Position numbers and translations under genes: made by a program. A DNA stretch of 64,000 nucleotides, taken from assembly GCA_016785015.1 (NCBI GenBank), contig JADHTJ010000004.1, forward strand, positions 16,142 through 80,141, in the 5' to 3' direction. Of this stretch, positions 21,631-60,566 are shown piece by piece; position 1 is the stretch's first letter; each line of letters begins with the position of its first letter. The notes under the pieces were generated by a model. That model saw only the letters and a list, made by a program, of their open reading frames with translations, did not search any database and was not told the origin of the DNA. The stretch is from Anaerolineales bacterium. GTDB lineage: Bacteria > Chloroflexota > Anaerolineae > Anaerolineales > UBA11858.

Positions 21631-22416
21631 TCAGCGGAACATACCGCGTCGGCGCCAATTAATTATTGGAGCCAAAAGGCGGCGAATGAAGTATCGAAAA
21701 TAGATCCACGAAAACCAACTACCGCCCTCCCGGCGATGGATGCGCAGCATCTCCGGCCAGCAGTGTTCATCTGCAGCGATTGTCTTGGCATCATCGTGCA
21801 AGCGGAAATTTGCCCAAATGTGACCTGGGAGATATCGAATCTCGGAAACTTTGGATAATCGCACCCACAGATCGTAATCCATGGCGAAATAGAAACTTGG
21901 ATCCAACGGGCCAACTTCCCGCCACAAATCGGCTCGCCAAAAAGCTGCCTGCTGAGGGATATAGACTCCGCCCCTTCGCAGACGCGTGTAGCTAGTCTGC
22001 TGGGCGTTAAATTTACCAATCATCTGGTCATCGGCAGCGATGAAGTTCGCATCGCCATAAACCATGCCAATTTCGGAATTCACCTGTAAGAACTTCACCG
22101 CTTCAGAGATTGCTCCAGGCTGGTACGTATCGTCAGAATTCAGCCATGCCAGGATATCACCTTTGGCTTGCGCGAAACCCTTGTTGATGGCCGCCGTTTG
22201 GCCTTGATCCTCTTCGGATACCCACCAGGCGATCTGATCTTGATATTCTTGAATGATGCCAACACTACCATCGCTTGAACCGCCATCAATAACAATATAT
22301 TCTACGTGAGGGTAATCCTGCTGCAATATCGAGAGAATTGTCGCTTCTAGATATTTGGCCTGATTAAAGGATGGAGTAACAATAGAAACTAGCGGATGCT
22401 GATCCACTGATTCCAT
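21631..22416 (-). CDS. glycosyltransferase family 2 (GT-A fold)
   Basis: 261 aa with [44 protein letters not shown] and the DxD-type block AWLNSDDTY. It is a paralogue of the N-terminal domain of the next gene upstream. Confidence 0.85.
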
Positions 22417-27620: not shown

Positions 27621-28445
27621 TTAGAAAAGTGAATCGTAATCTACTTTAGGAAACACGGTTAGTTGACCCCCAATTGTGGCATCGAGGACATTTCTCCCTG
27701 CGAACTCGAAAGCATTCTTTGCCATCCAGTAGCCTTGTTCAGATGTATCCAAGTCGGGGAGCTGCCAGCGGAAACCTTTGCCGAAGTAACCAGGGTCAAA
27801 ATGATTGGGGTCATCGCCGTCGGATACTACCGTTGTGTTGGGTTTCCCTTTGCTGGCAAAACTATGGTCAACACCAATCAATATGACTTGTTCAAAACCC
27901 ATGTGGAATGCTAATTGTAAACATGCATAAGTTACCGTAGCGCCTTCCCAAAGCCGCCCTGTCGCATCCTGAGCGAATCTCGGCCCAGTGTATGTCGTAA
28001 ATAAGAAATGAGTATTTTCATCAGGCCGGCCCTGAGGATACAATAACTTCTTCGATCTCCAAGAAAAGAATTTGGGAATCTCCAGCTTTTGGAAATCCTG
28101 GTAGCACTGCTCATTGACCAGGTCATTGACCGACACCAAATACGATGTATTAAATCCCCAATCAGGGAAAGCCAGGTAAATCCGATTCATCCCGAATGTA
28201 TATTCATCTTTCAGTTTGGAGACATCCGTGTTCTTCAGGCTGGGGCCATTGCCAATTATGAAACAGCGCTCGCCTCTGTGGACATCCTTGAGAGAAGCTA
28301 GCCGTTGAATACTCTCTCGCCGCCATGGATGCAAAACGGCTGCTGGCCACTGGGCAGCTCGTTGAAGTGCATAGCGCGTATTGCTGATGGGTTCCCACAC
28401 TGAAGCTGGAAACAATTTTTTAATTTTTTTTCGAATATCAGGCAT
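27621..28445 (-). CDS. DUF115 / MptE-like (Maf- and sialyltransferase-like) protein, candidate ulosonic-acid transferase
   Basis: 274 aa. CFIIGNGPSLKNTDVSKLKDEYTFGMNRIY matches the GNGPSL motif shared by Campylobacter Cst-II-type sialyltransferases and DUF115 Maf proteins. The later block FEQVILIGVDHSF is also shared. Confidence 0.5.
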   Translation of the reverse strand: MPDIRKKIKKLFPASVWEPISNTRYALQRAAQWPAAVLHPWRRESIQRLASLKDVHRGERCFIIGNGPSLKNTDVSKLKDEYTFGMNRIYLAFPDWGFNTSYLVSVNDLVNEQCYQDFQKLEIPKFFSWRSKKLLYPQGRPDENTHFLFTTYTGPRFAQDATGRLWEGATVTYACLQLAFHMGFEQVILIGVDHSFASKGKPNTTVVSDGDDPNHFDPGYFGKGFRWQLPDLDTSEQGYWMAKNAFEFAGRNVLDATIGGQLTVFPKVDYDSLF

Positions 28446-28484
28446 GTATTTATCGAATTGATGTTGAAAGTAAAATGTTTAACG

Positions 28485-29258
28485 TTATTCTGTGCTCAAC
28501 CGGGCGGTTGCTCCCCCATCTACGATCATGGCTTGACCTGTCATAAAGGATGATTGGTCGCTATCAGCAAGGAAGTAGATTGATTGAGCAATCTCATCAG
28601 GAGTACCAACTTTTCCACTAACTGTCTTTCGAGCCAGATTTTCCAAACGTTGTTGCACACTGCCAGCTCCAGCATGGTCACGGTTCATCCCTGCCCTCAG
28701 CATTGGGGTATCGACTGCACCAGGCAAAATGGCGTTCACACGAATATTGTCAGGTGCGAATTCAATGGCCATAGCGCGGGTCAACGCTAGCAAGCCGCCT
28801 TTACTGGCAGCGTAGGCGGAAATATCCTTAGAAGTCGCCACTGCATGAACGGAGGAGACATTCACTATCGCACCGCCACCATGATCCTCCAACAACGGAT
28901 AAGCCAGTTTGGCGCTCAAAAATACCGAACGCAAATTCGAAGCCATCACCGCATCCCATTCTTCGACACTAGTTTCCAAGAGCGGTTTGGTAATCTGATA
29001 AGCAGCGTTATTGATCAGCGCATCCAATGTGTCTGTGAAAGCTTGCGCCTTATCGAAAATCGATTCTAAGGCAGATGCATTTGAAATATCAGCTTGAATA
29101 AAAAGACCATTATCAGGGAAAGAGTCTCCATAAGAAGATCTGTCCACTCCAATCACCTGCCAACCTTTCTGGCTGAATAACTCTACAGTGGCGCGTCCAA
29201 TTCCCCCGGCTGCCCCAGTGATGAGCATCGTTCTTTTCAGTTTCTTAGATTTTTCCAT
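28485..29258 (-). CDS. short-chain dehydrogenase/reductase (SDR) family oxidoreductase
   Basis: 257 aa with TGAAGGIGRAT (TGxxxGxG), NNAA, and the catalytic S...YAASKGG (YxxxK). Confidence 0.85.
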   Translation of the reverse strand: MEKSKKLKRTMLITGAAGGIGRATVELFSQKGWQVIGVDRSSYGDSFPDNGLFIQADISNASALESIFDKAQAFTDTLDALINNAAYQITKPLLETSVEEWDAVMASNLRSVFLSAKLAYPLLEDHGGGAIVNVSSVHAVATSKDISAYAASKGGLLALTRAMAIEFAPDNIRVNAILPGAVDTPMLRAGMNRDHAGAGSVQQRLENLARKTVSGKVGTPDEIAQSIYFLADSDQSSFMTGQAMIVDGGATARLSTE

Positions 29259-29261
29259 TTG

Positions 29262-30224
29262 TTATTTTCTCGATTCCAAATCTGTTGAGTCAATCCCCAA
29301 GCCATCTAATAGATTGCGGATGGTATTCCAATGAACTCTCTCCCAAGCCATAGGACTGGAATTTGCATTATGCGGCGCAATCATGACATTATCCATCTGA
29401 CACAGCGGACTCCCTTTTGGGAGGGGTTCTTGTTCGAAAACATCCAGCGCCGCCCCAGCAATTGCCCCAGATTGAAGCGCCTCAACCAGGGCTGATTCAT
29501 CTACAATGGGACCACGGGCTGTGTTGATCACTACCGCCTCTGGTTTCATTGATGAAAGGGTTTCAGTATTAATTAAATGCTTACTCGTTGGGTTGAGATC
29601 GCAATTTACACTAATAAAATCGGCTCTTTGTAGTAGATCGGCAAGAGATGTCATCTCAAGGCGCATCTCGCGCACAAAATCTGGTCTGATATCTATTATG
29701 TCAGTTGCCAGGAGTTCCATGCCGAAAGCACTAGCCCTTCTGATGACCGCCTTACCAATATTGCCAACACCAATCACACCGAGCGTACATTCGCTCAAAG
29801 AACGGCCAGGTATCTTTTGCCACTGCCCAATTTTCATGGCGCGATTCATCCAGGGTTGTTGGCGTGCAAAGGCCAAAATATACCCCATCACGGTATCTGC
29901 CACAGGCAGCGTAAAAGCGTTCGGGGTGTTGCCAATCTTGATCCCTAATCGGTCGCTTGCATCTTGGTCAATTGAATCAATCCCCGTGCCCCATTTGGAT
30001 ATCACTTTCAAGCGCGGAGCACAGGCTTCCAGCACCTTCGCTGTATAATGATCATCTCCACAAATGGTGCCATCGAATTTGCCCGCAAATGTGAGTAATT
30101 CTTCGGCTTTGAGACGTTCTTCAACTTCAGGAACAATCAAATCCATCCCATGTGCTTCCAATACCGGGCGGAAGCGATCAAGAAATGGGATCATGTATGG
30201 TGCAGTGAATAAAATTTTAGGCAT
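29262..30224 (-). CDS. D-isomer-specific 2-hydroxyacid dehydrogenase family protein (phosphoglycerate-dehydrogenase-like)
   Basis: 320 aa with NAD site LGVIGVGNIGKAV, INTARGPIVDESALVEAL, and AGAALDVFEQEPLP...IAPHNA. Confidence 0.8.
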   Translation of the reverse strand: MPKILFTAPYMIPFLDRFRPVLEAHGMDLIVPEVEERLKAEELLTFAGKFDGTICGDDHYTAKVLEACAPRLKVISKWGTGIDSIDQDASDRLGIKIGNTPNAFTLPVADTVMGYILAFARQQPWMNRAMKIGQWQKIPGRSLSECTLGVIGVGNIGKAVIRRASAFGMELLATDIIDIRPDFVREMRLEMTSLADLLQRADFISVNCDLNPTSKHLINTETLSSMKPEAVVINTARGPIVDESALVEALQSGAIAGAALDVFEQEPLPKGSPLCQMDNVMIAPHNANSSPMAWERVHWNTIRNLLDGLGIDSTDLESRK

Positions 30225-30227
30225 TGT

Positions 30228-30899
30228 TTACTGGTTTGTTCTGCGGCTCATCAAAAAATCTACGATCGCGAAATCTAACTCTTCATCGATATCCCAGGCC
30301 TCGGCGGCGTCAATTTCAAACATCAGCGGCCGTTTGCCAAGACGATTTCGACGGGTTAATAAGGTATCTTTGGTGAAGATATAAATGCAGGAGTTTTCCT
30401 CGTAAGTTGGGGGCAAATCTTGCGTTTGGAGTAAATATGCCGGATTGTGATTGATCGCTCGGCCAAGTTGATCCCAGAGTCGCGTTTTTAGGCCGGTCAC
30501 AGAAAATAGGGAATCATGGGCCGGATATTTCTCAAGAAAAATTTGAATCGCTCTTGAAATCGTCTCGGCGCGCAAAAGCGGATTCGTGCTGTGAGTTTGT
30601 AAATAGAAATCGGCTTCGACTTGGGATGCATCATATGCCAAAACTTCATTCATTGGCACTTCATCGGGGCATAAATACTCTGGACGTTCCAGGACACGAA
30701 CATCAGGGAAATTTTTTGTCAAACCGTCCTTGATTTCAGAACTATCTGTATTGACAACTACTTCACTGATTTGGGGAACGTCAAGCAATCTCCCGATGAT
30801 GTAATGATAGAGCGGCTTTCCATCTAAAAAACGATAATTCTTTCCTGGAACCCGCTGCGAACAATGCCGCATAGGAACAAGAGCAACGATCTTCGTCAT
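30228..30899 (-). CDS. acylneuraminate-type cytidylyltransferase family protein (CMP-sugar synthetase-like)
   Basis: 223 aa. The N-terminal IVALVPMRHCSQRVPGKNYRFLDGKPL is a variant of the PARxxSxRxPxKN cytidylyltransferase motif. Substrate unknown. Confidence 0.65.
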   Translation of the reverse strand: MTKIVALVPMRHCSQRVPGKNYRFLDGKPLYHYIIGRLLDVPQISEVVVNTDSSEIKDGLTKNFPDVRVLERPEYLCPDEVPMNEVLAYDASQVEADFYLQTHSTNPLLRAETISRAIQIFLEKYPAHDSLFSVTGLKTRLWDQLGRAINHNPAYLLQTQDLPPTYEENSCIYIFTKDTLLTRRNRLGKRPLMFEIDAAEAWDIDEELDFAIVDFLMSRRTNQ

Positions 30900-30914: not shown

Positions 30915-31886
30915 CTACTCTTCAACATCTCCATATTTAATTGGTTCGATTTTGCGTGGGGCAGGCGTTTTTTCTGAAAGAATCCCTGGGGGATAATAAA
31001 ATGCCCGATGAAGCTGCGCATCAATTTTTCCAGAGTACCGATACCCCTGATATGTACCCAGATATTGCAAAAACCGGAACCAAAAAATACTAGTCCAATG
31101 CTGTCCTAGTACATTTTCTCGTCGCGCTTGCAACAGATCAGAGTAAGTCATACTCAACCACAAGCGCAAAAAATTCCATAATGAAAAATCGCTCTCGGGA
31201 AGAATTTGCTTCATTGCAATGGCTTCGCGTCGATAGCGGTTATGAACTTGGGCGGGTGTTTCATCGTGAACATGCACAATTTCCGCCTCAGCCACATACG
31301 AAATGTCAAATCCTTCACCCATGGCCCAACTGCTCCAGGCCAAATCTTCTAGGCCAGTAACATGTTCATTGTAGGGATGTTTCTCCCATAGATCGCGACG
31401 AACTGCCGCGTTGGCGTTGTGGGAATAAGCGTGCCCTTGACGAGGCTGCGAGGTATCCGGAAAATATTGACGGAAAAACTGGTGCTCAGAATATTGATTG
31501 GTATCGGCGCCACGTTGCTTGCCGTAACTTACAGCCACCTGTTCATCAGCCAATGGATTCAGTAGCTGCTCTAGCCAATCGGGGTAAACGGGATAACAAT
31601 GCGCACTGATGATGACGATATACTTTCCCCCTGCCGCTTCGATGCCCCAATTCAAGGAACGCCCAAAAGTGAATTCTTCAGGCTGAATATTTACTATTTT
31701 TACTGGATAGCGAGAAGCAATCGCGACGGTTTCGTCGGTAGAACCAGAATCTACTAAAACGATTTCTACATCTTCGATAGTCTGCTGGGTGATACCTTCC
31801 AGCAAGCGGCCGATATGTTCAGCTTCGTTATACGCCCGGATCACCACCGAGCACAGTGGACGTTCACCAGTCATTTGTTCTTTCAT
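30915..31886 (-). CDS. glycosyltransferase family 2 (GT-A fold)
   Basis: 323 aa with CSVVIRAYNEAEHIGRLLEGITQQTIEDVEIVLVDSGSTDET. The start may be the Met at 31874. Confidence 0.8.
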   Translation of the reverse strand: MKEQMTGERPLCSVVIRAYNEAEHIGRLLEGITQQTIEDVEIVLVDSGSTDETVAIASRYPVKIVNIQPEEFTFGRSLNWGIEAAGGKYIVIISAHCYPVYPDWLEQLLNPLADEQVAVSYGKQRGADTNQYSEHQFFRQYFPDTSQPRQGHAYSHNANAAVRRDLWEKHPYNEHVTGLEDLAWSSWAMGEGFDISYVAEAEIVHVHDETPAQVHNRYRREAIAMKQILPESDFSLWNFLRLWLSMTYSDLLQARRENVLGQHWTSIFWFRFLQYLGTYQGYRYSGKIDAQLHRAFYYPPGILSEKTPAPRKIEPIKYGDVEE

Positions 31887-32715
31887 ATCCCAAACGTACC
31901 AACAAATCTCCAGTCGTCTCTTTGAATATTTTTTTATGTTCCTCGTTGAATGACTCGCACCATTTGCCTATTTTGCCACTTCTAAAGGTGGGGGATTTTT
32001 GGGGATCAATGGCGGACTCCAGTATATTAAGCGCTTCCTGTTCCCCTACTTGGACTGGGAAGCCGCGACCTCGGGCATGATTCAACACCTTGAGCAGAGT
32101 TACCTCTTTTTGGGTGATGAAATCTTCAAATTGCAAAATCAAAACTTCGGGACGTTCGAGCCAACCCAAATAAGGTTCAAGGCGCACGCAAATATCAGGG
32201 AAAGGGATCTCTAGCTCTGGTCTGCCAAGGATACTCGTTCTGAGACGTTCATCAAAATTATTCAATTCATAGCGATAATGCTGATGATGCACATGGTTCG
32301 GTTCCATCTCTGTTACATAATGCACATGAGAGACACAAACGTCACGCGGATCGCGCAGGATGAAAAAAGGCGCAACGCCATCTTGAGTAAAAAGTGAGAC
32401 AACTTCCGGGAGGGCGTGTAAATGGCCATACGCGATATCACCAGGGCGAAAGCGCTTCAAATCTTGAATAATGGCATGCATCGGCCGAGGTTGACCAGTT
32501 GGGCCGTCAAAAGTAACCACAGCAGGTAGGCCGCTATCGACCGCCGGACCAAGCTGAGTCAGCCCTTGTAAAACTTGGGTTAAGAGGTGAGTACCACTCT
32601 TGGGGAACGAATTGGCGAAAAAAATTGGGAATCCACGTAGAGAACCATATTGAGCGATTACTCTCATGCGACGGTATTGCCAGCGAGCTAGCTTGAGCCA
32701 GGTTCGATAACTCAC
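31864..32715 (-). CDS. sulfotransferase (PAPS-dependent)
   Basis: 283 aa with the 5'-PSB motif FPKSGTHLLTQVL and the 3'-PB motif ILRDPRDVCVSHV. Its ATG overlaps the upstream stop (ATGA). Confidence 0.8.
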   Translation of the reverse strand: MSYRTWLKLARWQYRRMRVIAQYGSLRGFPIFFANSFPKSGTHLLTQVLQGLTQLGPAVDSGLPAVVTFDGPTGQPRPMHAIIQDLKRFRPGDIAYGHLHALPEVVSLFTQDGVAPFFILRDPRDVCVSHVHYVTEMEPNHVHHQHYRYELNNFDERLRTSILGRPELEIPFPDICVRLEPYLGWLERPEVLILQFEDFITQKEVTLLKVLNHARGRGFPVQVGEQEALNILESAIDPQKSPTFRSGKIGKWCESFNEEHKKIFKETTGDLLVRLGYERTNDW

Positions 32716-34334
32716 TCAGCCTCCGGCAAATAAAAAGGCTTTTCGTGAACAATTCCATCCATGAGCACTTTCATAGTAGGAGAACGTTCAACAGTCAGAT
32801 CTTTCCAGGAAACAGGTTTGAGTTGGACATACCCGGGTGTGGGATGAGTTTCAAGGAATTCGCCGAATGGCAAAGATACCCGATAAAGCTGATAATACAA
32901 GAATCGCCTGGCATTGTATTTAAATTCATCAGGAACACGGAGTTCGTCTGCAGCCAAAAATTCTTCGGCAAGCTTGCGGTATTCCCTTTGAGTTTGAGGA
33001 AAGTGCACGATGGGATATTGCGTGAAACGGGCTTTCCCACCACACAAAACAGGAGTATCCAACAATGTTGCTTCCAACCCAATGGACGAGTTATACACCA
33101 TGACAAATTTCGCTCGTCGAATCAGGTCGTAAGAACTGAAATATTCACCCGAATCGATGAAGATCACATTAGGTTGTTGATCAACATCATTTTTACTCAC
33201 CCAATCGCTGACACTCTCGCGGCTTTGTTTGCGAGTTCCTGGACGCTTCTCGTCAGGATGAGCACGGATAACGAACAGCGTATCAGGATGCGTCTTGATA
33301 ATCTCGAGCACCAAAGCCAACCAGGCAAACATTTGAGGGAAAACGGTATTGGCGTGAACCTGACTGGTATCGAAAACAACATTGGTATAAACTGGCACAA
33401 TTTGCTCAAACTGCGCAGAGAATTTTAAAAACTCTTCATCTAAAGCGCTCATCTCAGGCCAAAAGCAGATCCCAGCCATGGTGAATTCGCCCTTGAAGCG
33501 CCGGCTGAGATACGCATCCAAGCGAGCGTTTTGAGAGGGAGATAATTCGAAGTCTTCGGGAATATCAATGGGGTATGCTGTAGCATCACCCTCTGAGAAA
33601 AATGCTGAGAAAGGCTGAAAGCTGACTTCATGGGTGATCGAACGGATGCCATGCTGGCGCGCCACCCAACGCGCCGTGGCCTCAGGGAATTGAAGACCAT
33701 TGAAAAGGACAACAGTTGCTGGTTGCACTTCTGTTAAAAATGCGTCGAACACTTCAACAATTCGAAAAGCCGAAAGAATGTACTCACGAAGTTGATACAG
33801 AGTTGCTTCGTCATCATCGAGATGATGCTTGCGCAATGCCCAACGGAGTGAGGGGAGAACAAGTTTGCCGAGGGGGATTGTGAATTGTGAATGGGGAGTT
33901 GTGAACTGATAATCGCTGAGTTCTTTCAGGTTTAGAGTTTCAATTTCCCTGGCGAGTTCTTTATTTGGCTCGTACTCAAACCAATGGGTACGTGTTGAAG
34001 CCAAAAATTTCTTGGACTGCGTGATACACGCATCACAGGGGGGAGAAACGGTGTGGTCATCGGGATTTGTCCCCAGTACACAACGGCTCATCCCTGCGCG
34101 GCAGGCAAAGTGAACAATCGGTACACCTTCGAGTTGCAATCCCCAAGAAGTCAATTGTGTAAATGCCGCGTTGAGACTCACTCCCCCTAACCGTGAAGAT
34201 GTATTGAAAAATACGACGGGTTTTTGATTGGTGCTTGGTTTGGAATTGGAAACAACCTGGCGTGAAATGCGCGATATGAGCAGATCTGTTCTCTTACGCA
34301 GCCAGACATTTCGAAAGCGTTGTGGAATTTTCAA
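32712..34334 (-). CDS. capsule-biosynthesis (KpsC/KpsS, Capsule_synth-like) glycosyltransferase candidate
   Basis: 540 aa. It has an N-terminal Cys cluster (CRAGMSRCVLG...PPCDACI). The C-terminal half has FVIRAHPDE (RxHP) followed ~60 aa later by VMVYNSSIGLEATLLDTPVLCGGKARF, a pattern I associate with KpsS/KpsC-type Kdo transferases. Weak, motif-level call. Confidence 0.4.
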   Translation of the reverse strand: MKIPQRFRNVWLRKRTDLLISRISRQVVSNSKPSTNQKPVVFFNTSSRLGGVSLNAAFTQLTSWGLQLEGVPIVHFACRAGMSRCVLGTNPDDHTVSPPCDACITQSKKFLASTRTHWFEYEPNKELAREIETLNLKELSDYQFTTPHSQFTIPLGKLVLPSLRWALRKHHLDDDEATLYQLREYILSAFRIVEVFDAFLTEVQPATVVLFNGLQFPEATARWVARQHGIRSITHEVSFQPFSAFFSEGDATAYPIDIPEDFELSPSQNARLDAYLSRRFKGEFTMAGICFWPEMSALDEEFLKFSAQFEQIVPVYTNVVFDTSQVHANTVFPQMFAWLALVLEIIKTHPDTLFVIRAHPDEKRPGTRKQSRESVSDWVSKNDVDQQPNVIFIDSGEYFSSYDLIRRAKFVMVYNSSIGLEATLLDTPVLCGGKARFTQYPIVHFPQTQREYRKLAEEFLAADELRVPDEFKYNARRFLYYQLYRVSLPFGEFLETHPTPGYVQLKPVSWKDLTVERSPTMKVLMDGIVHEKPFYLPEAE

Positions 34335-34540: not shown

Positions 34541-36430
34541 TCAATCCTTGGCTGTCGCTTCGATATATGCGTCCGATAGCCTGTTAATAGCAACGATGAA
34601 TCCTTCACCGCCGCGCTGATGCCCACGCCATATCTCTGGGATCATTGTGCCGTGATAATCTTTGACAATTTTGAAGAACCTGACCCAATCAATATTGCCT
34701 TGGCCAACCTGCAACCCTTCTCCGTCTATTCCAGCCGCATCAGAAAGGTGCAAATGTGAGATATAAGGCAAAATGACTTCGACTTGCTCATAAAAATCTA
34801 CCTTAGCCCAATTGCAATACAGCTTATGGTGCGATGTATCATAGCAAGTCATCATGCCCATCGAATCAAGGAATTCCTTGATCTCATGAGTATCCATAAA
34901 AGCATTGGTCAACCACTGACCACCGAAATACCAGGGGTGAGGCGGCAAGTTTTCGATTAACACTTCTACGCCATCGCAGTCAAGTTCTTCTACGGAACGC
35001 TTAAGATTATCGTACAATCCTTGACGGTCCGTTATTGGGTTGTCAATGCTGGCCGCTCCAGGATGTACGACTACTTTCGGGGTACCCACAAAATGCGGGG
35101 CCATATCTCGAGTGACATTGATGGCCCTTTGCAGGATATTCACGGAAGCCCTGCGATGGTCATCATCAAAGGTGCATAAATCCACCAAATGGTTCGTCCA
35201 AAATTCAGGTGCATGGATAACTAATTGAACATCTAGATCATCCCCAGGGTAAGGTTCATCCAGGTCTTTATCTGTAAAATGGAATTCCAACAGAGGTGGA
35301 TCATACTTGAGCATATTTCTAAAATCATTGAAACGTACAACGAAGCCCCACTCCATAGGCAGGGTATGCTCCATATCGAGCGTCACCCGGCGACCGATAT
35401 CAACGGGCAAATATGGCTCGTCAGCTTCAATGTCTCGCACAGATACTCGGCCAATCAAATCAGTATAACGCTGCGGAGATAGCCCCTGGCCAGGACCCTT
35501 TACCGTCACCATTTCACGAGTAATCTCTTCCCCGGGCTTAATATGCCGTGTTGCCACCAAACTCTTGGCCAGAACTTCACGGTTGAGTATCTCGCCCATA
35601 GTAAAGAATTTCTCTTCACTAGTACCCATAGCAATTGATATCTGCCGGATATCTCGCACCATTTTCTTGAACCCATGGGGTTCGAGGCTCGAGGCATGAT
35701 CAGGCCCATCCATGGTGCGGTCGAGTGTAATATGGCGTTCAATAATACTGGCACCCAATGCGGCAGCCACTGTTGATACCGAGATCCCGCGTTCATGCCC
35801 TGAATATCCGACCGGTACACCATAGTCACGTAGGCGATCCATAAAACGCAAATTGATATCACCGAATGCCGCCGGATAGGCACTGTTACAATGCAATAGC
35901 GCGAATTCCGCATCGCGTTCCTTGAGAAACGCGACTGTCGTTTCAACTTCTTCCATGCGAGACATGCCCGTTGATACGATCAGCGGTTTGCCTTTGTCGA
36001 TGAGATAATCGATTAAGGGCAAATTGATCATATCTGCTGAGGCAACTTTGAATGCGGGCACCCCCAAAGATTCGATAAAATCGGCGCTATCCTGATCAAA
36101 GGCTGAACACATGAAGGTCACGCCCTTTTCACGGCAATAGTCAACGATTTTGTGATAGTCAGCATCCGAGAGTTCGACTTGCTGCAAAATGGGCAGCAAA
36201 TAATTTAAGTTCTTCTCACCGACATTGGCGTTATCGAGGTATTTTTTGGGGTACAGCTTTTCAAGATTGCGTTTCTGAAATTTAACTGCGTCTACTCCTG
36301 CATCAATTGAAGCATCTATCAATTCGAAAGCGTATTCCAAAATCCCATTATGGTTGACGCCAATTTCAGCAATGATATAAGCCGGATGTCCATCACCAAC
36401 AAGCTGGTCACCAATTTTTATCTCAGGCAT
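34541..36430 (-). CDS. NeuB-family (N-acylneuraminate/ulosonate) synthase with SAF domain fused to a xylose-isomerase-like TIM-barrel (AP_endonuc_2-type) domain
   Basis: 629 aa. The NeuB N-terminus is AYIIAEIGVNHNGILEYAFELIDASIDAGVDAVKFQK, plus LHCNSAYPA and SGHERG. The SAF-like segment is SLVATRHIKPGEEITREMVTVKGPGQG. The C-terminal ~265 aa (LEFHFTDKDL...VVHPGA...ENLPPH...SHLHLSDA) looks like a sugar-phosphate isomerase/epimerase TIM barrel. Confidence 0.7.
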   Translation of the reverse strand: MPEIKIGDQLVGDGHPAYIIAEIGVNHNGILEYAFELIDASIDAGVDAVKFQKRNLEKLYPKKYLDNANVGEKNLNYLLPILQQVELSDADYHKIVDYCREKGVTFMCSAFDQDSADFIESLGVPAFKVASADMINLPLIDYLIDKGKPLIVSTGMSRMEEVETTVAFLKERDAEFALLHCNSAYPAAFGDINLRFMDRLRDYGVPVGYSGHERGISVSTVAAALGASIIERHITLDRTMDGPDHASSLEPHGFKKMVRDIRQISIAMGTSEEKFFTMGEILNREVLAKSLVATRHIKPGEEITREMVTVKGPGQGLSPQRYTDLIGRVSVRDIEADEPYLPVDIGRRVTLDMEHTLPMEWGFVVRFNDFRNMLKYDPPLLEFHFTDKDLDEPYPGDDLDVQLVIHAPEFWTNHLVDLCTFDDDHRRASVNILQRAINVTRDMAPHFVGTPKVVVHPGAASIDNPITDRQGLYDNLKRSVEELDCDGVEVLIENLPPHPWYFGGQWLTNAFMDTHEIKEFLDSMGMMTCYDTSHHKLYCNWAKVDFYEQVEVILPYISHLHLSDAAGIDGEGLQVGQGNIDWVRFFKIVKDYHGTMIPEIWRGHQRGGEGFIVAINRLSDAYIEATAKD

Positions 36431-36449
36431 ATTTTTTCTCCATTACGAT

Positions 36450-37202
36450 CTAAAAATCTTCAATCGTAAATCCTAAATCGTCTATTGAAATCTCCCCATT
36501 AACTAATAATCTTTCCGCACGTTTCCAATCATCAGGCGAGTCGATATCTACCCACTCGCTGGGATCAATAATTAGGGGCAAGATATGATCACCTGTCATG
36601 GAATTCTTTTCAATGATGGTATCCACCCAGGCAGCATCCACATAGCCAGTCTGCCAGTAAATTTCTGGCAGCGCTTGACGGGGCTGATTGTAGGGTTCGT
36701 TTGGGATACCCAAATCTAATCCGATTGGCTGCATCAGACCATCTTGCCCAATGCGCCACATCTTGTATGGGTTTTGGAAGGGGATACAAACTGTGCGAAC
36801 GGCGTCAGCTTCTGGGTGCTCAATCAATCGCAGGACTGCCTGATCGATATGCCAAACCCGGCGAAATGGGGACGTCGGCCGCAGTTGAACAACGATGTCG
36901 GGCTTATAGCCCTCGTTAGCATCCAACCATTCCAAAGCGTGCTGGAATACCGGCAAATCTGGTGTCTGATCTCGGGCGTGTTCTTCGGGACGAGTGAAGG
37001 GGGTTTCTGCCCCATAGCGGCGGGAGATTTCGGCGATCTCATCATCATCGGTCGAAACAATCACTCGCGTGACAGTTTCCGCAGTCAGACCAGCCGCGAT
37101 GCTGTAGGCTATCAGGGGGTAACCGGCGAAATCAATTACGTTTTTTCGAGGAATGGATTTTGAGCCACCCCGGGCGGGGATAAGTGCGAGAACTTCAGTC
37201 AT
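36450..37202 (-). CDS. acylneuraminate cytidylyltransferase family protein (CMP-ulosonate synthetase, NeuA-like)
   Basis: 250 aa with the canonical N-terminus VLALIPARGGSKSIPRKNVIDFAGYPLIAYSI. Confidence 0.8.
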   Translation of the reverse strand: MTEVLALIPARGGSKSIPRKNVIDFAGYPLIAYSIAAGLTAETVTRVIVSTDDDEIAEISRRYGAETPFTRPEEHARDQTPDLPVFQHALEWLDANEGYKPDIVVQLRPTSPFRRVWHIDQAVLRLIEHPEADAVRTVCIPFQNPYKMWRIGQDGLMQPIGLDLGIPNEPYNQPRQALPEIYWQTGYVDAAWVDTIIEKNSMTGDHILPLIIDPSEWVDIDSPDDWKRAERLLVNGEISIDDLGFTIEDF

Positions 37203-37429: not shown

Positions 37430-38251
37430 CTACCAAGTCGTCCATCCACCATCGACGATGAGATTGGCGCCGGTCATGTATTTGGAAGCCTCAGATGCTA
37501 AAAACAACACTGCCCCATTCATCTCGTCTTTTTCAGCCATGCGCCCGATCACTGCGCGTGCCGAGTAAGCTTCGACAAATTCATCATTATGGTCATTAAA
37601 AACCCCACCAGGAGTCAATGCGTTAACGCGGATGCCCTTACCAGCATAGTAGGCCGAGAGATATTTAGTCATTCCCAACACTCCGGCTTTGGTGACCGTA
37701 TAATAAACTGGCTTGAATTGTGGGGGTTCTCCCTTACGCTGGTACATGCGTTGATCTGGCGCGGTTACTCCATAAATCGAAGAGACATTGATAATTACGC
37801 CACTCTCTTGATCCAACATGGGTTTGACAGCAACCTGACTACAAAGGAAAATTCCGGTCAGATTTACGTCAAGAGCCTGCTGCCACAATTCAAGCGGATA
37901 ATCTTCAAATGCACCCGAATGGGATTTCTTTGATTGGGGATCGAACTTGGGATCTAATGCCGCGCTGTTGACCAGGATGTCAAGTCGGTTGAAGTTCTTC
38001 AGGGACGAATCCACCATTGCTTGGGCAGAATCAGCATTGGTCACGTCTGTCTCAATCCCCAGGGCATGGAATCCGCTTTGGGACAGAGAAGCCGCTAAAT
38101 CCATGGCGGCCTCCCCATTCAAATCTGCTATGACCACGACAGCACCTGCTTGAGCCAGGGTCCAACAAAATTCTGCCCCCAACAACCCTGCTCCGCCTGT
38201 TACAACTGCTACACGACCTGTTAAATCAAATAGATCTGGGAGTTCGGGCAT
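37430..38251 (-). CDS. short-chain dehydrogenase/reductase (SDR) family oxidoreductase
   Basis: 273 aa with VAVVTGGAGLLGAEF, NSAA, and S...YTVTKAG (YxxxK). Confidence 0.8.
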   Translation of the reverse strand: MPELPDLFDLTGRVAVVTGGAGLLGAEFCWTLAQAGAVVVIADLNGEAAMDLAASLSQSGFHALGIETDVTNADSAQAMVDSSLKNFNRLDILVNSAALDPKFDPQSKKSHSGAFEDYPLELWQQALDVNLTGIFLCSQVAVKPMLDQESGVIINVSSIYGVTAPDQRMYQRKGEPPQFKPVYYTVTKAGVLGMTKYLSAYYAGKGIRVNALTPGGVFNDHNDEFVEAYSARAVIGRMAEKDEMNGAVLFLASEASKYMTGANLIVDGGWTTW

Positions 38252-38261
38252 TCTCTAATTC

Positions 38262-39986
<1,725 letters not shown>

Positions 39987-40220: not shown

Positions 40221-41150
40221 TCACCAACCAGTTACCAATAGATCACCAAGTAAGGCATTATGTACTCGAATCACGGCATGTTGTACATCTGGGAACTGGA
40301 TTTCAATCGTCTCCCACACTTGGGCGCGCATACGCAAACTATCGCATTTATCCTTGGGTTTGGCAAAATCACCTCGCAACCAAACTGTAGTCTCACCTTC
40401 TGCAGGTCCAGGCTCTACATCTTCAACACGCAGCGATGATGCATGCATAGGGTTATACAGACCATTGTAATACTGGTAGTTGTTAGAAAATAATGCATTC
40501 AATGCATTGGTGATATCCACTTCTAATACACCAGTTCGCTCAATGCCTGGAGCAATATACAGGAGACTATCCCCGCATCCGAAAGGGCCACCCGTATTTT
40601 CGGCAACCATGAAATAATAGATCCCGTCTCCACCTATATTGGAAGCTGGTTCTCCGGTTGGCGTTGGTGGTGGGGTTAGTACAGGTACACCGGTCACATT
40701 GCCACCGACAGTTACAACATTGTCCGAAATCCAGCAGGTCTTGTCACCTTCCGCTATATAGATTAACCACCACAGTAAATCGCCTTCCACAACACCTTCA
40801 ATTGCTGGAGCATCTCCAATCGATAAATAACCAATAATCGGGTAATTGGTTCCTGGGCCGGTTCGGCAAACTGCATTCTGATCCACTAGCATGGCTGGCG
40901 GGATTGGCGTTGGCGTTTGAGTTGGCGTGCTAGTCGATGTCTTTGTAGGTGGGATTTGGGTTGCCGTTTGTGTCTCGGTTGGTGGGATGAGCGTATCTGT
41001 CACCGTTAGAGTCCAAGTCGCTGTGGGGGCTTTTATTGTCGCTGATGGCGGCACTGGGCTAGAGGTAGGCTCTGAATTGACTGGAAAAACACAACTTGCT
41101 AAAGCAATTGATAGCGCAATAAAGGGCAGTAATTTTCTAATACTTTTCAT
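40221..41150 (-). CDS. lipoprotein with Thr/Pro-rich linker, SH3b-like domain and GerMN-like C-terminal domain
   Basis: I set the start at ATG 41150 (MKSIRKLLPFIALSIALASCVF, a signal peptide with an LASC lipobox). A PT-rich stretch follows (IPPTETQTATQIPPTKTSTSTPTQTPTPIPP). Then comes the SH3b-like NAVCRTGPGTNYPIIGYLSIGD. The C-terminus (YYFMVAENTGGPFGCGDSLL...VWLRGDF) resembles GerMN. Confidence 0.6.
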   Translation of the reverse strand: MKSIRKLLPFIALSIALASCVFPVNSEPTSSPVPPSATIKAPTATWTLTVTDTLIPPTETQTATQIPPTKTSTSTPTQTPTPIPPAMLVDQNAVCRTGPGTNYPIIGYLSIGDAPAIEGVVEGDLLWWLIYIAEGDKTCWISDNVVTVGGNVTGVPVLTPPPTPTGEPASNIGGDGIYYFMVAENTGGPFGCGDSLLYIAPGIERTGVLEVDITNALNALFSNNYQYYNGLYNPMHASSLRVEDVEPGPAEGETTVWLRGDFAKPKDKCDSLRMRAQVWETIEIQFPDVQHAVIRVHNALLGDLLVTGW

Positions 41151-41212
41151 GGGCTTACTTCTTATTTGTAAATCTACTGGATGGTATATAATTTGGCACA
41201 TTCGAATAGAAA

Positions 41213-42820
41213 ATGGGTATAGCCTTTATGAACTCTCTCAAGAAAAACTGGCTCATTGTTTCGTTATTAATTGTTTATTTCATTTACGCAGGCCTATATA
41301 TCTATCAGACCAGCTTCATTTCTGATGGCACTCGATATTTCGTTCTTTTTGACGATGCCATGATTTCAATGCGTTACGCCAAGAATTTCGCAGATGGTTA
41401 TGGGTTGGTTTGGAACCCTGGCGAAACGCCCGTCGAGGGGTATACAAATCCCTTATGGGTGATGTTCATGGCGTTCTTTCATTTGTTCCCACTTCCCACA
41501 GAAAAAATCAGCCTGGCAATTCAAATAAGTGGGGCAATCTTTTTAGGTGCAAATCTGATATTGGTCAAGAAGATCACCAATTTGATTTCTTCGAGTTTTC
41601 TATTGCCCCTCTTCGCAATACTGCTAACTGCCTTTTATACACCCCTGAACAACTGGGGCTTACAAGGCATGGAAGTCAGCATTTTGGTACTCCTGCTCAG
41701 TGTTGCCGTCTGGAAATTGCTGGTAGATTTCAACGACGACAAGTTTTCCCCATGGCCCTATCTTCTACTTGGTTTTGGAACGTTTGTCAGAGTTGATATG
41801 GCTGTGGCCTATCTTGTGCTGATAGGTTTTAGCGTTGTCTTTATTCCTAAATATCGCTGGCGGCATTTGCTGTGGGGTGTTGGATTGCTTGTTGCATTTC
41901 TTGCCAGCCAAACTCTTTTCCGGATTTGGTATTATGGCGATCCTTTGCCAAATACCTATTATCTAAAAATGAGCGGAATACCTCTCCTCACCCGTGTCAA
42001 ACGTGGTTTATATGTGCTCTACCAATTCGTATGGGAAATGAACTGGGTCTTACTCGCTCTCCCCTTCGCCTATTTAGTATTCAAACGAGACCGCAAAACG
42101 ATCCTGCTTGCATTGTTGGTACTTGGTCAACTTGCCTACAGCGTTTACGTTGGTGGAGATGCCTGGGAACATAAAGGTGGTGCCAACCGTTATATTGCTT
42201 TAGCAATGCCGATGTTCTTCATTCTATTCGTTTATTCAATCGACCAGATACTTCAAGCAATAAAATCCTCGAGCGCAATTCCAAACACCCCAATTTCAAC
42301 ACAAACCATGGTAAATATGGCGCTCGTAACAGCAATACTCGCAAGCCTCATAAATTTCAACTTCATCCAAAAAGATATTCGATACTTAGAACGCTGGTTG
42401 CTGCTCAGGCCGCCAATCTTCATCGAGGGCAATAAAGAAGCGGTACGTATCGCATCAGCGGTTCGAAAAGTCACCACTTCAGATGCTGAAATTGGCGTCG
42501 TCACTGCTGGGGCAATTCCATATTTCGCTGACCGCCTTTCTCTCGATCTACTGGGGAAAAATGACGCATATATTGCCCATTTACCCAGTCACATCGCTTC
42601 GTCATTGGATGACATCCGTCCTGGACATATGAAATGGGATTACGACTATTCGATTGGCCAACTCAAGCCGGATATGATCCTGCAATTGTGGGGCGATAAA
42701 ACAATCGCCTATGACTATATTGAACAGTACTACACTGTGATCGAGGTTGATGGGATGTTATTCTCTGCCCGGAGTGATTCTCCATATATTTTGTGGGATC
42801 GCGTCGATTCAACCCCTTAG
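41213..42820 (+). CDS. polytopic membrane protein, GT-C-like glycosyltransferase candidate; only plus-strand gene in the cluster
   Basis: 535 aa. First loop: [38 protein letters not shown], an Asp-rich first extracytoplasmic loop as in GT-C enzymes. It has more than 10 TM segments and a soluble C-terminal ~130 aa. The start could be ATG 41228. Confidence 0.45.
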
Positions 42821-43824: not shown

Positions 43825-44868
43825 CTACCAATCCAAATCTTTTTCATAACCCCAATCCTGAAGTGTTCTTCCCGCAATCTCTTTGAAAATCTGTTTATCG
43901 CGCTTCGTAAATAGATCACGCCAAGAGCCAGATTTACCTTTCTTCAATGGCTCGACTAACTCGCCAGCTTTCTGACGCTGCCATTGAGCATCGGGGTTGC
44001 TGCCCAACTCTTTCTCTAATATTTCTGGCAAATCAGCTTTTTTTGTTTCAACACCCAAAAATTTCCAGAGGCGTTTCATTTGCTCCCAAGAATTCTTCAG
44101 CAAATCTTCATAACGAACAGATATATATTGTTGATCTCCAAATAATTCTTGACCCATCCGGTTGGTTTCAGTCACATTGCGAACCCAACTTTCTGCAGAA
44201 CGGCGAATCCCCGACTGGGTATATATTGATCGCTCACCATTCATAAATGGTTCAGGGTTCTTTTCGAAATCTTTGCGAATAGCCCAATCTTGCTTGGTGA
44301 GATGCTGCTGCGCATCAATAAACTGCTGGAAGCGGTGTGAAATTACTGCATCACGTCCATCTCGCACAATAAAGATCAATTTGCCCTCAGGGTAAATTTT
44401 CACCATCCTACGTACAGCTTCACCATTGAGTAAACCATTAGGGCTTTTATCCCCCACAACCGTAGCTCCCACCTGCCGGGCTTCGCGTTCCATGACAAAC
44501 TCAACCGCAGCGCGCATCACTACAGGAGAAAGGTCGCCACCGCGATTCCAGCGGTTGCTGCGTCGTGTCAACCAGGATTCAATTGCTTTGCTGTCAACCA
44601 GCCCATCCATTGTAGGTTTGCGAGTGAAAAAATGTCCTTGATAATTACAATGAGCAGCGGGATGGAGACGAATCAAGCGGGTAAGCAGGGTTGTGCCCGA
44701 ACGGGCATGGCCGAAAATAAAAAACTTGTCCAGAGGAAAAAAAACTTTAAATTCAGCTACATCATCAGGTGTGAGGGCAGGGATCTCGCCTCTCGGCTCA
44801 GTTCTTATTTCCCCGGTAAAAAACACTCGGGCTGCTAATTGGATGCGCTTGGAAATTTTGGTAATCAT
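43825..44868 (-). CDS. sulfotransferase (PAPS-dependent)
   Basis: I set the start at ATG 44868 (MITKISKR...), 4 nt after the upstream stop. The track start at 45084 would overlap the upstream gene by 212 nt. The 5'-PSB motif is FIFGHARSGTTLLTRLI and the 3'-PB motif is FIVRDGRDAVISHRF. Confidence 0.8.
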   Translation of the reverse strand: MITKISKRIQLAARVFFTGEIRTEPRGEIPALTPDDVAEFKVFFPLDKFFIFGHARSGTTLLTRLIRLHPAAHCNYQGHFFTRKPTMDGLVDSKAIESWLTRRSNRWNRGGDLSPVVMRAAVEFVMEREARQVGATVVGDKSPNGLLNGEAVRRMVKIYPEGKLIFIVRDGRDAVISHRFQQFIDAQQHLTKQDWAIRKDFEKNPEPFMNGERSIYTQSGIRRSAESWVRNVTETNRMGQELFGDQQYISVRYEDLLKNSWEQMKRLWKFLGVETKKADLPEILEKELGSNPDAQWQRQKAGELVEPLKKGKSGSWRDLFTKRDKQIFKEIAGRTLQDWGYEKDLDW

Positions 44869-44872
44869 ATTT

Positions 44873-46303
44873 TCAATTGAGTAGCGCCAGCAAATATTCC
44901 GCAGTGCGAACCCCAGCTTTGCCATCCGTGAACGTACATTCGCGAGTGATGAAATCTTTCCTGGCATGCTGATCGGCAGCAGAGTCATCCAAATAACGGT
45001 TGATCGCAGCCTGCAACTCAATTTCGTTTTGGGCCTCGCGTCCTGCGTTCGATTCTCTGTACCGCTCGTGGGTAGGCCAGCCACCGATCTTTGTCAGTGG
45101 CAAGGTGAATTTTCCTGGCCAACCTTCAGGAGCATCAATGCATAAACTAATCACCGGCGTTCCATGGAGCGAAGCTTCTACCACCATCGTCGAATAAACC
45201 GTTACCATCACATCAGAATAAGCCATCATTGATGATTTCTCGGGCATATCTTCACCGGAGTAATAACTCATCCCACCTTCTCCCAATGGCACAGGCTCAA
45301 CTACATGAACATGGGGCAATTCCGCAGCAAGCTCTCTAACCCTCTCGCGCTCGGCAGCAAAACGAGGTGTTTCCATGAAATGTGTGGGGTGCAAACGGAT
45401 CAGCAGTTGCGAGGGCAGCGATAACTTTTCTTCAGATACCAATCTCGCTAATGCTTCTACATTCTGGATATTCGGTGAAAAAGTAATAAAGCTGCTGGCG
45501 TAGGAGATCAGTTTTCGATTCGGATCCAGGTTGTGTAGCCTGAAATATTCATCTCGTGCCATCAGCCATTCGCCGCGCACATAGCCATCGTAAGAAGGGA
45601 TGCCCCCAATATTCACGCGTTCGGGAGGCCAGTCCGCACCGAGAACAAGTTCCTCTTTTTGTAGTTCCGACCAACACGATATCCAGTCCACGGGAGCGCC
45701 TGGTAAACTGTAACTGCTGGAGTTATCCCATCCGACGATCACAGCCGCTGTTTCCAAACCGCGTGCAGCAGCTTCTCGGAGCAAGTAACGATCGTAGCGC
45801 CATCCCGGTGTGCTGGCAATCACCAAGTCCGGAGAATATTTCTCAAACAAATCCGCGTAAAGATTGGGATTGAAACGGTTCTGATATCGGACTAACCACC
45901 GACGTATTAGCCAGGAATTTCGCAAGATCTTGATCACCATTCTCATCAAAGGGAACAATGCCTTGCGCTTGGCGTGGGCATCATCTTCGACTTGACCAAT
46001 AAAGCCATCCACAGCTTCCAGGTTGATGCGGTTTGAGGCCCCAGCGCGCCGCAAGAAATGCAGCCACCATTGTAAAGACGGTCTCTCAGTACGTTCATAA
46101 GCCTTGGCTTGTTCCAGACGCAGGCCTTCGACTACCAATCCTTGGCGCCCAAAACGCTGCTGTATCTGATCGATAAGTGCATCATCCGTAAGCAAAACAA
46201 CCTCGACACCAGCTTCAATGAGTGTTGCAATAACATCGCTCTGAAGAAAATAAATTGCTGCTAACCCATGGTCTGCGCAAACAAATATACGCTTTGATGA
46301 CAT
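44873..46303 (-). CDS. GT-B-like glycosyl/glycerophospho-transferase candidate (Capsule_synth/TagF-like layout), function uncertain
   Basis: 476 aa with PDLVIASTPGWRYDRYLLREAAARGLETAAVIVGWDNSSS, then LLIRLHPTHF (RxHP), then ~70 aa later DVMVTVYSTMVVEASLHGTPVISL. No family assigned with confidence. Confidence 0.35.
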   Translation of the reverse strand: MSSKRIFVCADHGLAAIYFLQSDVIATLIEAGVEVVLLTDDALIDQIQQRFGRQGLVVEGLRLEQAKAYERTERPSLQWWLHFLRRAGASNRINLEAVDGFIGQVEDDAHAKRKALFPLMRMVIKILRNSWLIRRWLVRYQNRFNPNLYADLFEKYSPDLVIASTPGWRYDRYLLREAAARGLETAAVIVGWDNSSSYSLPGAPVDWISCWSELQKEELVLGADWPPERVNIGGIPSYDGYVRGEWLMARDEYFRLHNLDPNRKLISYASSFITFSPNIQNVEALARLVSEEKLSLPSQLLIRLHPTHFMETPRFAAERERVRELAAELPHVHVVEPVPLGEGGMSYYSGEDMPEKSSMMAYSDVMVTVYSTMVVEASLHGTPVISLCIDAPEGWPGKFTLPLTKIGGWPTHERYRESNAGREAQNEIELQAAINRYLDDSAADQHARKDFITRECTFTDGKAGVRTAEYLLALLN

Positions 46304-56350: not shown

Positions 56351-56361
56351 AGAGCAGTTAT

Positions 56362-57117: not shown

Positions 57118-57135
57118 AGAACATCTCCCGTAGTA

Positions 57136-57366: not shown

Positions 57367-57421
57367 GATTCAAATTTGGAGAGTAGAGATTGGAAATCGG
57401 CAATGGTTACAACACTCAATA

Positions 57422-59376: not shown

Positions 59377-59391
59377 TTCAATCGTTGGCGG

Positions 59392-60513: not shown

Positions 60514-60566
60514 AGTTGCACCTCTGTCTTTGAGCATAGCTACGGATGCAGAATTATTCTTTGGTC

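Follow-up and report, generated by a model that had tools for sequence, protein, structure and literature searches.

Fusion of a NeuB-type synthase to a xylose-isomerase-like barrel in an Anaerolineales glycan locus, and the barrel as a candidate ulosonate-9-phosphate phosphatase

Nonulosonic acids, which include sialic acids, 2-keto-3-deoxynononic acid (Kdn), legionaminic acid and pseudaminic acid, shape bacterial surfaces, the matrices of biofilms and granular sludge, and recognition by hosts or phages. The closest described route to the one considered here is the cytidine monophosphate (CMP)-Kdn pathway of Bacteroides thetaiotaomicron and Prymnesium parvum, which employs a Kdn-9-phosphate (Kdn-9-P) synthase, a Kdn-9-P phosphatase and a CMP-Kdn synthetase (PMC6200933, citing Wang et al. 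2008). Mannose-6-phosphate (Man-6-P) and phosphoenolpyruvate (PEP) are converted via Kdn-9-P and Kdn to CMP-Kdn, so that a phosphatase is needed (PMC6200933). In Bacteroides and animals, this 9-phosphate phosphatase is an enzyme of the haloacid dehalogenase (HAD) family (PMC6200933, PMC8208679). Herein, a stretch of 64,000 nucleotides from an Anaerolineales bacterium (assembly GCA_016785015.1, contig JADHTJ010000004.1, positions 16,142 to 80,141; "the window") was analyzed, with emphasis on one minus-strand gene (34541..36430) that encodes a NeuB-type synthase, a SAF domain and a xylose-isomerase-like triosephosphate isomerase (TIM) barrel in a single protein. Like the CMP-Kdn pathway, the system pairs a NeuB-family synthase with a cytidylyltransferase and needs no sugar-nucleotide tailoring genes, but the loci examined here lack a HAD phosphatase and instead carry a fused or adjacent AP_endonuc_2-type barrel. 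The fused architecture is genuine and either ancient or widely transferred, and its barrel is a candidate for the enzyme that removes the 9-phosphate.

The fusion gene forms one open reading frame (ORF) of 629 codons plus stop, with an ATG start at 36430, no internal stop, and a Shine-Dalgarno sequence (GGAG, read from the sequence at 36438..36441) located 7 nt upstream of the start. All coordinates refer to the window and to its minus strand unless stated otherwise. The NeuB catalytic, PEP-condensing domain covers residues 37-272 (35615..36322; PF03102, E 8e-83, 278 bits against a gathering cut-off of 22.1), and it aligns with Neisseria meningitidis NeuB (NmNeuB). It is followed by a SAF, or antifreeze-like, domain at residues 289-339 (35414..35566; Pfam E 4e-10, 40.5 bits, cut-off 21). 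The barrel occupies residues 358-629 (34544..35359) on the combined basis of Pfam, AlphaFold, Foldseek and conservation, and within it the AP_endonuc_2 match spans residues 398-604 (PF01261, E 4e-27, 95.9 bits, cut-off 31.1). Residues 340-357 (35360..35413) form an inter-domain linker with a lower predicted local distance difference test score (pLDDT, about 75-85) in the full-length model. When the barrel was modelled alone (residues 356-629), AlphaFold returned a confident (beta/alpha)8 barrel of alternating strands and helices with a mean pLDDT of 96.6. The full-length monomer reached a mean pLDDT of 91.5 and a predicted template modelling score of 0.63, with confident domains whose mutual orientation is not confident and with no defined interface. 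This model thus speaks neither for nor against the earlier suggestion of channelling between the two activities, and it gives no view of a tunnel. The original prediction, which was made from the sequence alone and named no strand, had placed NeuB, SAF and a xylose-isomerase-like barrel in one ORF; the uninterrupted frame and the Pfam matches confirm this, and all the motifs it cited are present in the translation (IIAEIGVNHNG, VKFQKR, YSGHERG, IKPGEEIT, LLEFHF, VVHPGA, ENLPPH, HLHLSDA and IPEIW).

The NeuB and SAF layout is that of NmNeuB (PDB 1XUU/1XUZ), to which the fusion protein is 33% identical over 340 residues. It differs from NmNeuB in carrying Gly312 in place of Arg314, in not conserving Asn74 and in its extra domain of 270 residues. 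In NeuB enzymes, two subunits form a domain-swapped dimer, with the SAF domain of each covering the active site of the other (PMC8208679). By analogy, one may speculate that a barrel attached to the C-terminus of SAF would lie near the active site of the other subunit.

The same three domains were found in one protein of 627-634 residues in each of the 120 best homologues (73-95% identical), which come from many independent assemblies, mostly metagenome-assembled genomes (MAGs) of Anaerolineae/Chloroflexota. The closest among the matches listed, at 95% identity, belongs to an uncultured Anaerolineales MAG. Furthermore, a Kocuria homologue aligns collinearly with the window protein over 628 residues at 39% identity. 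Split, adjacent-gene versions do exist in other lineages, a point in favour of an assembly or frameshift error that joined two separate genes in the window. Such an artefact is nevertheless ruled out for practical purposes by the single unbroken frame, the collinear homologues and the fused state of all 120 close relatives, whose sources include contigs above 1 Mb and complete genomes; the earlier claim of a true fusion is borne out by these same-length proteins.

The architecture is also common. A search with the barrel alone against 1.84 billion cluster representatives retrieved 733 clusters at E <=1e-3 and 131 at E <=1e-30. Representatives with a complete barrel (n=107) comprised 33 proteins of the order CBS-NeuB-SAF-TIM (about 750 residues), 30 of the order NeuB-SAF-TIM (about 630 residues), 15 barrel-only proteins and 29 partial or other forms, some of which have the order TIM-CBS. 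In a collection with one genome per species, at least 583 matching stretches were confirmed. Cultured Actinomycetota carry the CBS-NeuB-SAF-TIM form under the label "N-acetylneuraminate synthase family protein", among them Rothia, Kocuria, Arthrobacter, Sinomonas, Micrococcus terreus, Microbacterium, Gulosibacter, Pseudoclavibacter, Aquihabitans and Actinomyces graevenitzii. RefSeq and IMG label family members either with that name or as [quoted passage not shown]. Rarity of the architecture is thus contradicted by its wide occurrence and existing annotation. The accompanying statement that no characterized example was known agrees with our literature searches, which yielded neither a description nor a published characterization of a NeuB-SAF-TIM fusion. 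The fusion is therefore best described as a widespread, database-annotated variant of a known pathway, apparently without a characterized member.

The barrel constitutes a subfamily of its own. In nearly all cases with readable context, it is either part of the same protein as one particular clade of NeuB or encoded by the next gene downstream. It was seen fused to NeuB in several domain orders and also as a separate gene directly downstream, which upholds the earlier proposal of a functional coupling between the two halves. Of the five barrel-only genes whose surroundings could be read, four directly follow a separate NeuB(-SAF) gene (L085, L088, L091 and L093), the exception being an archaeal homologue (L092) that lies beside ribosomal protein genes and lacks the PPxPW motif. 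In IMG/VR, the barrel is encoded on 16 viral contigs, including three giant-virus MAGs; a NeuB domain is located directly upstream in 16/16 of them and in the same frame in 12. The NeuB domains of these partners are 41-52% identical to the window NeuB, compared with 33% for NmNeuB, and one particular clade of NeuB therefore travels with one particular clade of barrel.

Two side observations concern these outlying members. The exceptional archaeal barrel (L092:2892-3698) is a stand-alone gene on an archaeal-type contig, directly after the L11-L1-L10-P1 ribosomal protein genes. It keeps HPGG and ENMP, lacks PPxPW and has no NeuB within 4 kb of sequence; it may be closer to the archaeal protein MJ1311 than to the NeuB-linked subfamily. 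Among the viral sequences, phage-like contigs (among L091, L093 and L094-L109) gave hints of Mu-like capsid and head-completion proteins. A PHROGs scan returned no match. The viral NeuB-barrel pair, fused or adjacent, is often accompanied by a cytidylyltransferase and an MptE-like transferase, and viruses thus seem to carry the whole module.

Gene neighbourhoods also bear on the pathway. Conservation beside the fusion was counted in 40 Anaerolineales loci with full flanks. Immediately upstream in the window lies the partner cytidylyltransferase (36450..37202; CTP_transf_3, PseF-like but below the equivalog cut-off), which is present in 39/40 of these loci. Its stop codon (36450-36452) is located 19 nt before the ATG of the fusion; the two tightly spaced genes probably belong to one operon, and a scan for promoters and terminators gave no signal above chance. 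The cytidylyltransferase is the only neighbour kept across phyla. It also adjoins the module in L081, L083, L084, L089, L090 and L093, and the window enzyme is 38% identical to its counterpart in the Kocuria locus. The Kocuria and Gulosibacter loci share the order of an unknown 356-residue protein, the cytidylyltransferase, the fusion and glycosyltransferases. In L090, the cytidylyltransferase and the fusion stand with a DUF6716 glycosyltransferase as an island amid housekeeping genes. No PseB/PseC, LegB/LegC, NeuC-type or HAD phosphatase genes, and no PseG/LegG-type hydrolase, were found in the Kocuria, Gulosibacter and L090 loci, and no HAD-family gene that could serve as a dedicated 9-phosphate phosphatase was found in any Pfam-annotated context examined. 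Comparison of the module's third gene across phyla revealed no homology, and the partner glycosyltransferase is, to judge from these sequences, lineage-specific.

A comparable arrangement is known from Streptomyces coelicolor, whose cluster for teichulosonic acid, a Kdn polymer, contains the operon SCO4879-SCO4881 for NeuE-like, NeuA and NeuB proteins (PMC3479208, PMC13011467, PMC11481543). The order of unknown protein, cytidylyltransferase and NeuB-type synthase resembles that of the Kocuria and Gulosibacter loci, the likeness being one of gene order alone. It offers a possible lead, rather than a result, linking the family to Kdn.

Because the minimal loci lack sugar-nucleotide tailoring genes and the cytidylyltransferase is always adjacent, we infer that the fusion and its partner enzyme make up a self-contained module leading from a central sugar and PEP to a CMP-nonulosonic acid. 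In the proposed scheme, this module would start from a central metabolite: the NeuB domain would condense PEP with a hexose-6-phosphate, such as mannose-6-phosphate, to give an ulosonate-9-phosphate, and the barrel, as a metal-dependent phosphoesterase with an endonuclease IV (Endo IV)/MJ1311-like His/Asp/Glu site, would remove the 9-phosphate to yield the free acid. The cytidylyltransferase would then activate this acid to a CMP-nonulosonic acid without a 2-acetamido group (Kdn-like). Finally, the adjacent glycosyltransferase, which resembles nonulosonic acid (NulO) transferases, might add the sugar to the large and probably sulfated glycan encoded in the window. The barrel would thereby substitute for the HAD-type Kdn-9-P or Neu5Ac-9-P (N-acetylneuraminate-9-phosphate) phosphatase of Bacteroides and animals. 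Assignment of the barrel as the 9-phosphatase is proposed because the route needs a phosphatase, because the barrel is the sole unassigned catalytic domain in the minimal loci, and because its metal site is phosphoesterase-like. We put the probability that the barrel is a metal-dependent ulosonate-9-phosphate phosphatase at about 0.42, which makes it the leading, still tentative, reading.

The NeuB half of the fusion is probably active as a synthase, since it retains the residues that serve NmNeuB in catalysis and in binding PEP and metal: E25, K53, Q55, K129, H215, H236 and D247 of the latter correspond to E22, K50, Q52, K128, H212, H233 and D244 of the window protein, all conserved in the alignments. 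The NCBIfam equivalog for N-acetylneuraminate synthase (TIGR03569, NeuB_NnaB) scored 345.9 bits, below its cut-off of 399.65, and that for pseudaminic acid synthase (TIGR03586, PseI) 246 bits, below 340.25. An N-acetylneuraminate synthase proper was accordingly rejected on this score and on the absence of the SAF arginine, and PseI on its score. The arginine in question, Arg314 of NmNeuB, contacts the N-acetyl carbonyl of N-acetylmannosamine; it is reported to be present throughout bacterial NeuB and missing in the mammalian Neu5Ac-9-P synthase (PMC11339185). In the window protein the position is occupied by Gly312 (VKGPGQG), and in 44 fused homologues by Ser, Gly, Thr, Cys, Ala, Ile or Phe, never by Arg.

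Further indications came from the Man-6-P-specific Kdn-9-P synthetase of P. parvum, the sequence of which was taken from the supplement of PMC6200933. The catalytic domain of the fusion is 34.8% identical to this enzyme (E 2e-41), which differs from the fusion in lacking a SAF domain. Both share the motifs SGH and DHxxSLEP, where NmNeuB has SDH and DIVCSMNP, and the Prymnesium enzyme scores 136 bits against the fusion compared with 94 bits against NmNeuB. Since the N-acetyl-binding arginine is missing, the NeuB features point to a non-acetamido, Kdn-like product; they point, weakly, to a phosphorylated substrate.

For the barrel half, the closest solved relative by both sequence and Foldseek is MJ1311 of Methanocaldococcus jannaschii (PDB 3WQO, "D-tagatose 3-epimerase-like protein"). 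It was the only hit when the single sequence was searched against solved structures (E 7e-8). A profile built from 34 diverse family members recovered MJ1311 at 2e-16, followed by the endonuclease IV structures 5ZHZ (1e-9), 8AXY (1e-7) and 1XP3 (8e-6), with sugar epimerases only at E above 0.05. MJ1311 shares an Endo IV-like His/Asp/Glu set with the barrel but differs in being a stand-alone archaeal protein of about 18% identity, in having a DDEH loop where the barrel family has DGEG, and in lacking the PPxPW(Y/H)(F/L)GG motif of the NeuB-linked subfamily. Endo IV (Nfo) and the cobamide-remodelling phosphodiesterase CbiR belong to the same superfamily as the barrel, and both show that the fold can hydrolyze phosphoesters. 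CbiR (NF041277) was also the best NCBIfam match of the window barrel, at 23-27 bits against a cut-off of 105; nfo gave no match of the window barrel at E <=0.01 and weak matches in 4-5 of the 34 members. The best ketose 3-epimerase family reached 17.9 bits against cut-offs of 200-317. As all these scores are below cut-off, membership of the nfo, CbiR and ketose 3-epimerase equivalogs was rejected.

Residue conservation supports a metal-dependent function. Across 108 barrels, the residues that never vary are E382, H406, D531, H534, H561, E571, G572 and E599; D564 is kept in 107/108. The profile alignment maps H406, H456, E493, D531, H534, H561 and E599 onto H69, H109, E145, D179, H182, H216 and E261 of Endo IV, so that seven of the nine metal-ligand positions carry the same residue in the window barrel. 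As the nine-ligand trinuclear set is incomplete, membership of Endonuclease IV itself was rejected. Two of the mapped positions, H456 (about 35063..35065) and E493 (about 34952..34954), proved to be perfectly coupled: 48 of the 108 barrels, the window included, have His/Glu, 60 have Asn, Ser or Thr together with Gln, and none is mixed. Coupling of this kind is as expected if H456 and E493 form one metal site as they do in Endo IV. Every sampled protein with a CBS domain is in the Gln state, and this state corresponds to the large CBS-NeuB-SAF-TIM group, which keeps the NeuB partnership. These patterns suggest two mechanistic subtypes of the barrel, with and without one metal site, acting with the same partner.

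The same residues bear on the function first proposed for the barrel, that of a sugar or sugar-phosphate isomerase/epimerase that prepares the aldose, for instance by turning a ketose-phosphate into an aldose-phosphate, or alters stereochemistry and so leads to an unusual ulosonic acid. In ketose 3-epimerases, both glutamates of the Glu-Asp-His-Glu tetrad act as catalytic bases, and Gln in place of the first would inactivate the two-Glu proton shuttle. The window protein does carry such a tetrad (Glu493-Asp531-His561-Glu599), and in Foldseek its fold matches UlaE and the 3-epimerases of L-ribulose, D-psicose and D-tagatose, at a probability of 1.0 and template modelling (TM) scores of 0.6-0.74. 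Weak NCBIfam matches to fructoselysine 3-epimerase, L-ribulose-5-P 3-epimerase, IolO and hydroxypyruvate isomerase, together with the IMG label "sugar phosphate isomerase/epimerase", run in the same direction. Set against these points, Glu493 is replaced by Gln in 60/108 barrels, always with loss of His456, and these members still have their NeuB partner, which makes an epimerase function across the family unlikely. Moreover, the profile E-values for epimerases stay above 0.05 compared with 1e-9 for Endo IV, 2-keto-3-deoxy acids have no C3 hydroxyl to epimerize, and in the minimal loci the phosphate of a central-metabolite substrate would stay on. The isomerase/epimerase assignment has therefore lost ground to the MJ1311/Endo IV affinity, and we consider it unlikely. 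Somewhat less likely still is the wider proposition that such a barrel, coupled to the condensation in Chloroflexota, Actinomycetota, phages and giant viruses, yields a nonulosonic or related ulosonic acid of undescribed stereochemistry or carbon skeleton; such an acid might be further sulfated in the window locus.

Several observations weigh against the 9-phosphatase proposal and need to be set beside its support. In the Foldseek ranking, MJ1311 and Mycobacterium tuberculosis Endo IV come first, with the sugar-phosphate 3-epimerases UlaE and L-ribulose 3-epimerase closely behind and almost level with Endo IV; all have TM scores of about 0.7, and a probability of 1.0 was obtained for many xylose-isomerase-like barrel members. 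Single-sequence NCBIfam searches point in part to epimerases and in part to CbiR/nfo, with every score far short of its cut-off. In addition, the window barrel keeps the complete Glu-Asp-His-Glu tetrad, two Endo IV site-3 ligands are not conserved (the position of D229 varies, and that of H231 is taken by Gly572, beside the invariant E571), and 60/108 members lack two site-1 ligands, the equivalents of H109 and E145. Because over half of the family lacks these two ligands, the classical trinuclear Endo IV mechanism cannot apply throughout the family. MJ1311, the nearest solved relative, is without an assigned function, and the close relatives have neither a solved structure nor a characterization. 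On the pathway side, promiscuous housekeeping phosphatases could carry out the dephosphorylation, a redundancy that has been noted before (PMC6200933), and Kdn as the identity of the sugar is something that we infer. With respect to the synthase, the beta2-alpha2 loop matches bacterial NeuB in length, and the substrate-tracking catalytic position carries the "bacterial" Asp rather than Glu. That position has been speculated to correlate with substrate phosphorylation, Asp going with an unphosphorylated substrate (PMC8208679); hints to the phosphorylation state from the beta2-alpha2 loop conflict.

This loop and the catalytic Asp, which resemble those of bacterial enzymes using unphosphorylated sugar, fit a variant in which the barrel is a phosphoesterase acting before the condensation. 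Its substrate would be a nucleotide sugar, a sugar-1-phosphate or a hexose-6-phosphate, from which it would release the aldose, in functional analogy to the hydrolases PseG, LegG and NeuC, and so feed a bacterial-type NeuB with unphosphorylated sugar. The Endo IV/CbiR-like character of the barrel serves this variant equally well, Endo IV and CbiR are phosphodiesterases and not monoesterases, and the Kocuria, Gulosibacter and L090 loci lack a hydrolase of the NeuC, PseG or LegG type. Conversely, the fusion has the SGH/SLEP motifs and the loss of the Arg in common with 9-phosphate synthases, no data favour a particular nucleotide sugar, and the split versions are always ordered NeuB then barrel, a weak point. 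Hydrolysis ahead of the condensation is thus less likely than removal of the 9-phosphate, and improbable in its own right. The superfamily is also functionally very diverse, with myo-inosose dehydratase IolE, MbnB and mannonate dehydratase among the matches, and no equivalog cut-off was reached by the barrel; dehydratase, decarboxylase or lyase-type chemistry, of kinds known among its members, on a product or intermediate, or a non-catalytic structural or regulatory module, would be compatible with this diversity. Eight invariant polar residues of metal-ligand type in 108/108 diverse sequences argue for catalysis, however, and known CMP-nonulosonate routes need no extra step beyond dephosphorylation or sugar release, which leaves this last option the most doubtful of those weighed for the barrel.

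These assignments matter beyond the window. Hundreds of genomes, among them those of genera from the human mouth and skin (Rothia, Actinomyces, Kocuria and Microbacterium), list the synthase family under the generic label "N-acetylneuraminate synthase", and it probably does not make N-acetylneuraminic acid. If the barrel is indeed the missing phosphatase, it would accomplish the 9-phosphate step in a new, HAD-independent manner and would represent a new activity for the Endo IV/xylose-isomerase superfamily, and the motif PPxPW(Y/H)(F/L)GG next to NeuB would become a genome marker for Kdn-type sugars. The presence of cultured organisms and viruses in the family makes the barrel question directly testable.

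The window as a whole is one large minus-strand glycan locus, in which the gene order is PAPS (3'-phosphoadenosine-5'-phosphosulfate) synthase, short-chain dehydrogenase/reductase (SDR), cytidylyltransferase, fusion, glycosyltransferase, sulfotransferase, GT2, a second cytidylyltransferase and further genes. The cassette is headed by a bifunctional ATP sulfurylase/APS (adenosine-5'-phosphosulfate) kinase for PAPS supply (38262..39986; 36/40 loci). It is followed by an SDR oxidoreductase (37430..38251; best NCBIfam match PRK09186, below cut-off), found in 39/40 loci. This SDR stands beside the module in Anaerolineales and is absent from the actinobacterial and minimal loci (L081, L083, L084 and L090). 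On the other side of the fusion, a putative CMP-ulosonate-dependent glycosyltransferase (32712..34334) with weak Capsule_synth and BFO_1060-family matches is present in 40/40 loci.

A second, unfused NeuB+SAF synthase (59431..60537), which keeps the Arg equivalent to NmNeuB Arg314, is encoded in a separate cassette at 54177..62576. This cassette further comprises a PseB/LegB-like dehydratase (61551..62576), an RmlD-like reductase (60567..61547), a GT1 (58267..59376), an aminoglycoside-N-acetyltransferase-like protein (56362..57117), a DUF4910/DUF2172/M28-like protein (55034..56350) and a third cytidylyltransferase (54177..55037). Because it has its own cassette with a PseB/LegB-like dehydratase and an N-acetyltransferase, the pathway of the second NeuB is taken to be distinct from that of the fusion, and the locus probably makes two different nonulosonic acids.

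The locus is heavily equipped for sulfation, with the PAPS synthase, three or more sulfotransferase-domain proteins and a 623-residue GT2-sulfotransferase fusion (38262..39986, 43825..45084, 31864..32715 and 22389..24260). These genes suggest a sulfated, nonulosonate-containing polymer. Extracellular polymeric substances that are sulfated and contain Kdn or NulO have been reported from granular sludge (PMC10483923).

Several further ORFs accompany these cassettes. The sole long plus-strand ORF of the central locus (41213..42820, plus strand) encodes a protein of 535 residues without a Pfam match and has a homologue in 10/40 loci; other long ORFs without a Pfam match are located at 40221..41201, 44873..46303, 48127..50352, 53280..54173 and 57422..58321. 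At 17972..21541, a protein of 1189 residues combines an N-terminal S-adenosylmethionine (SAM) methyltransferase with two GT1/GT4-type glycosyltransferase regions. Finally, a small cassette at 27621..30899 contains a cytidylyltransferase (223 residues), a D-2-hydroxyacid dehydrogenase resembling phosphoglycerate dehydrogenase (PGDH), an SDR and an MptE-like (DUF115/Maf-type) protein. Its cytidylyltransferase is present in 37/40 related loci and the PGDH-like dehydrogenase in 19/40; activation of a second CMP-linked acid and modification of the first are both possibilities for this cassette.

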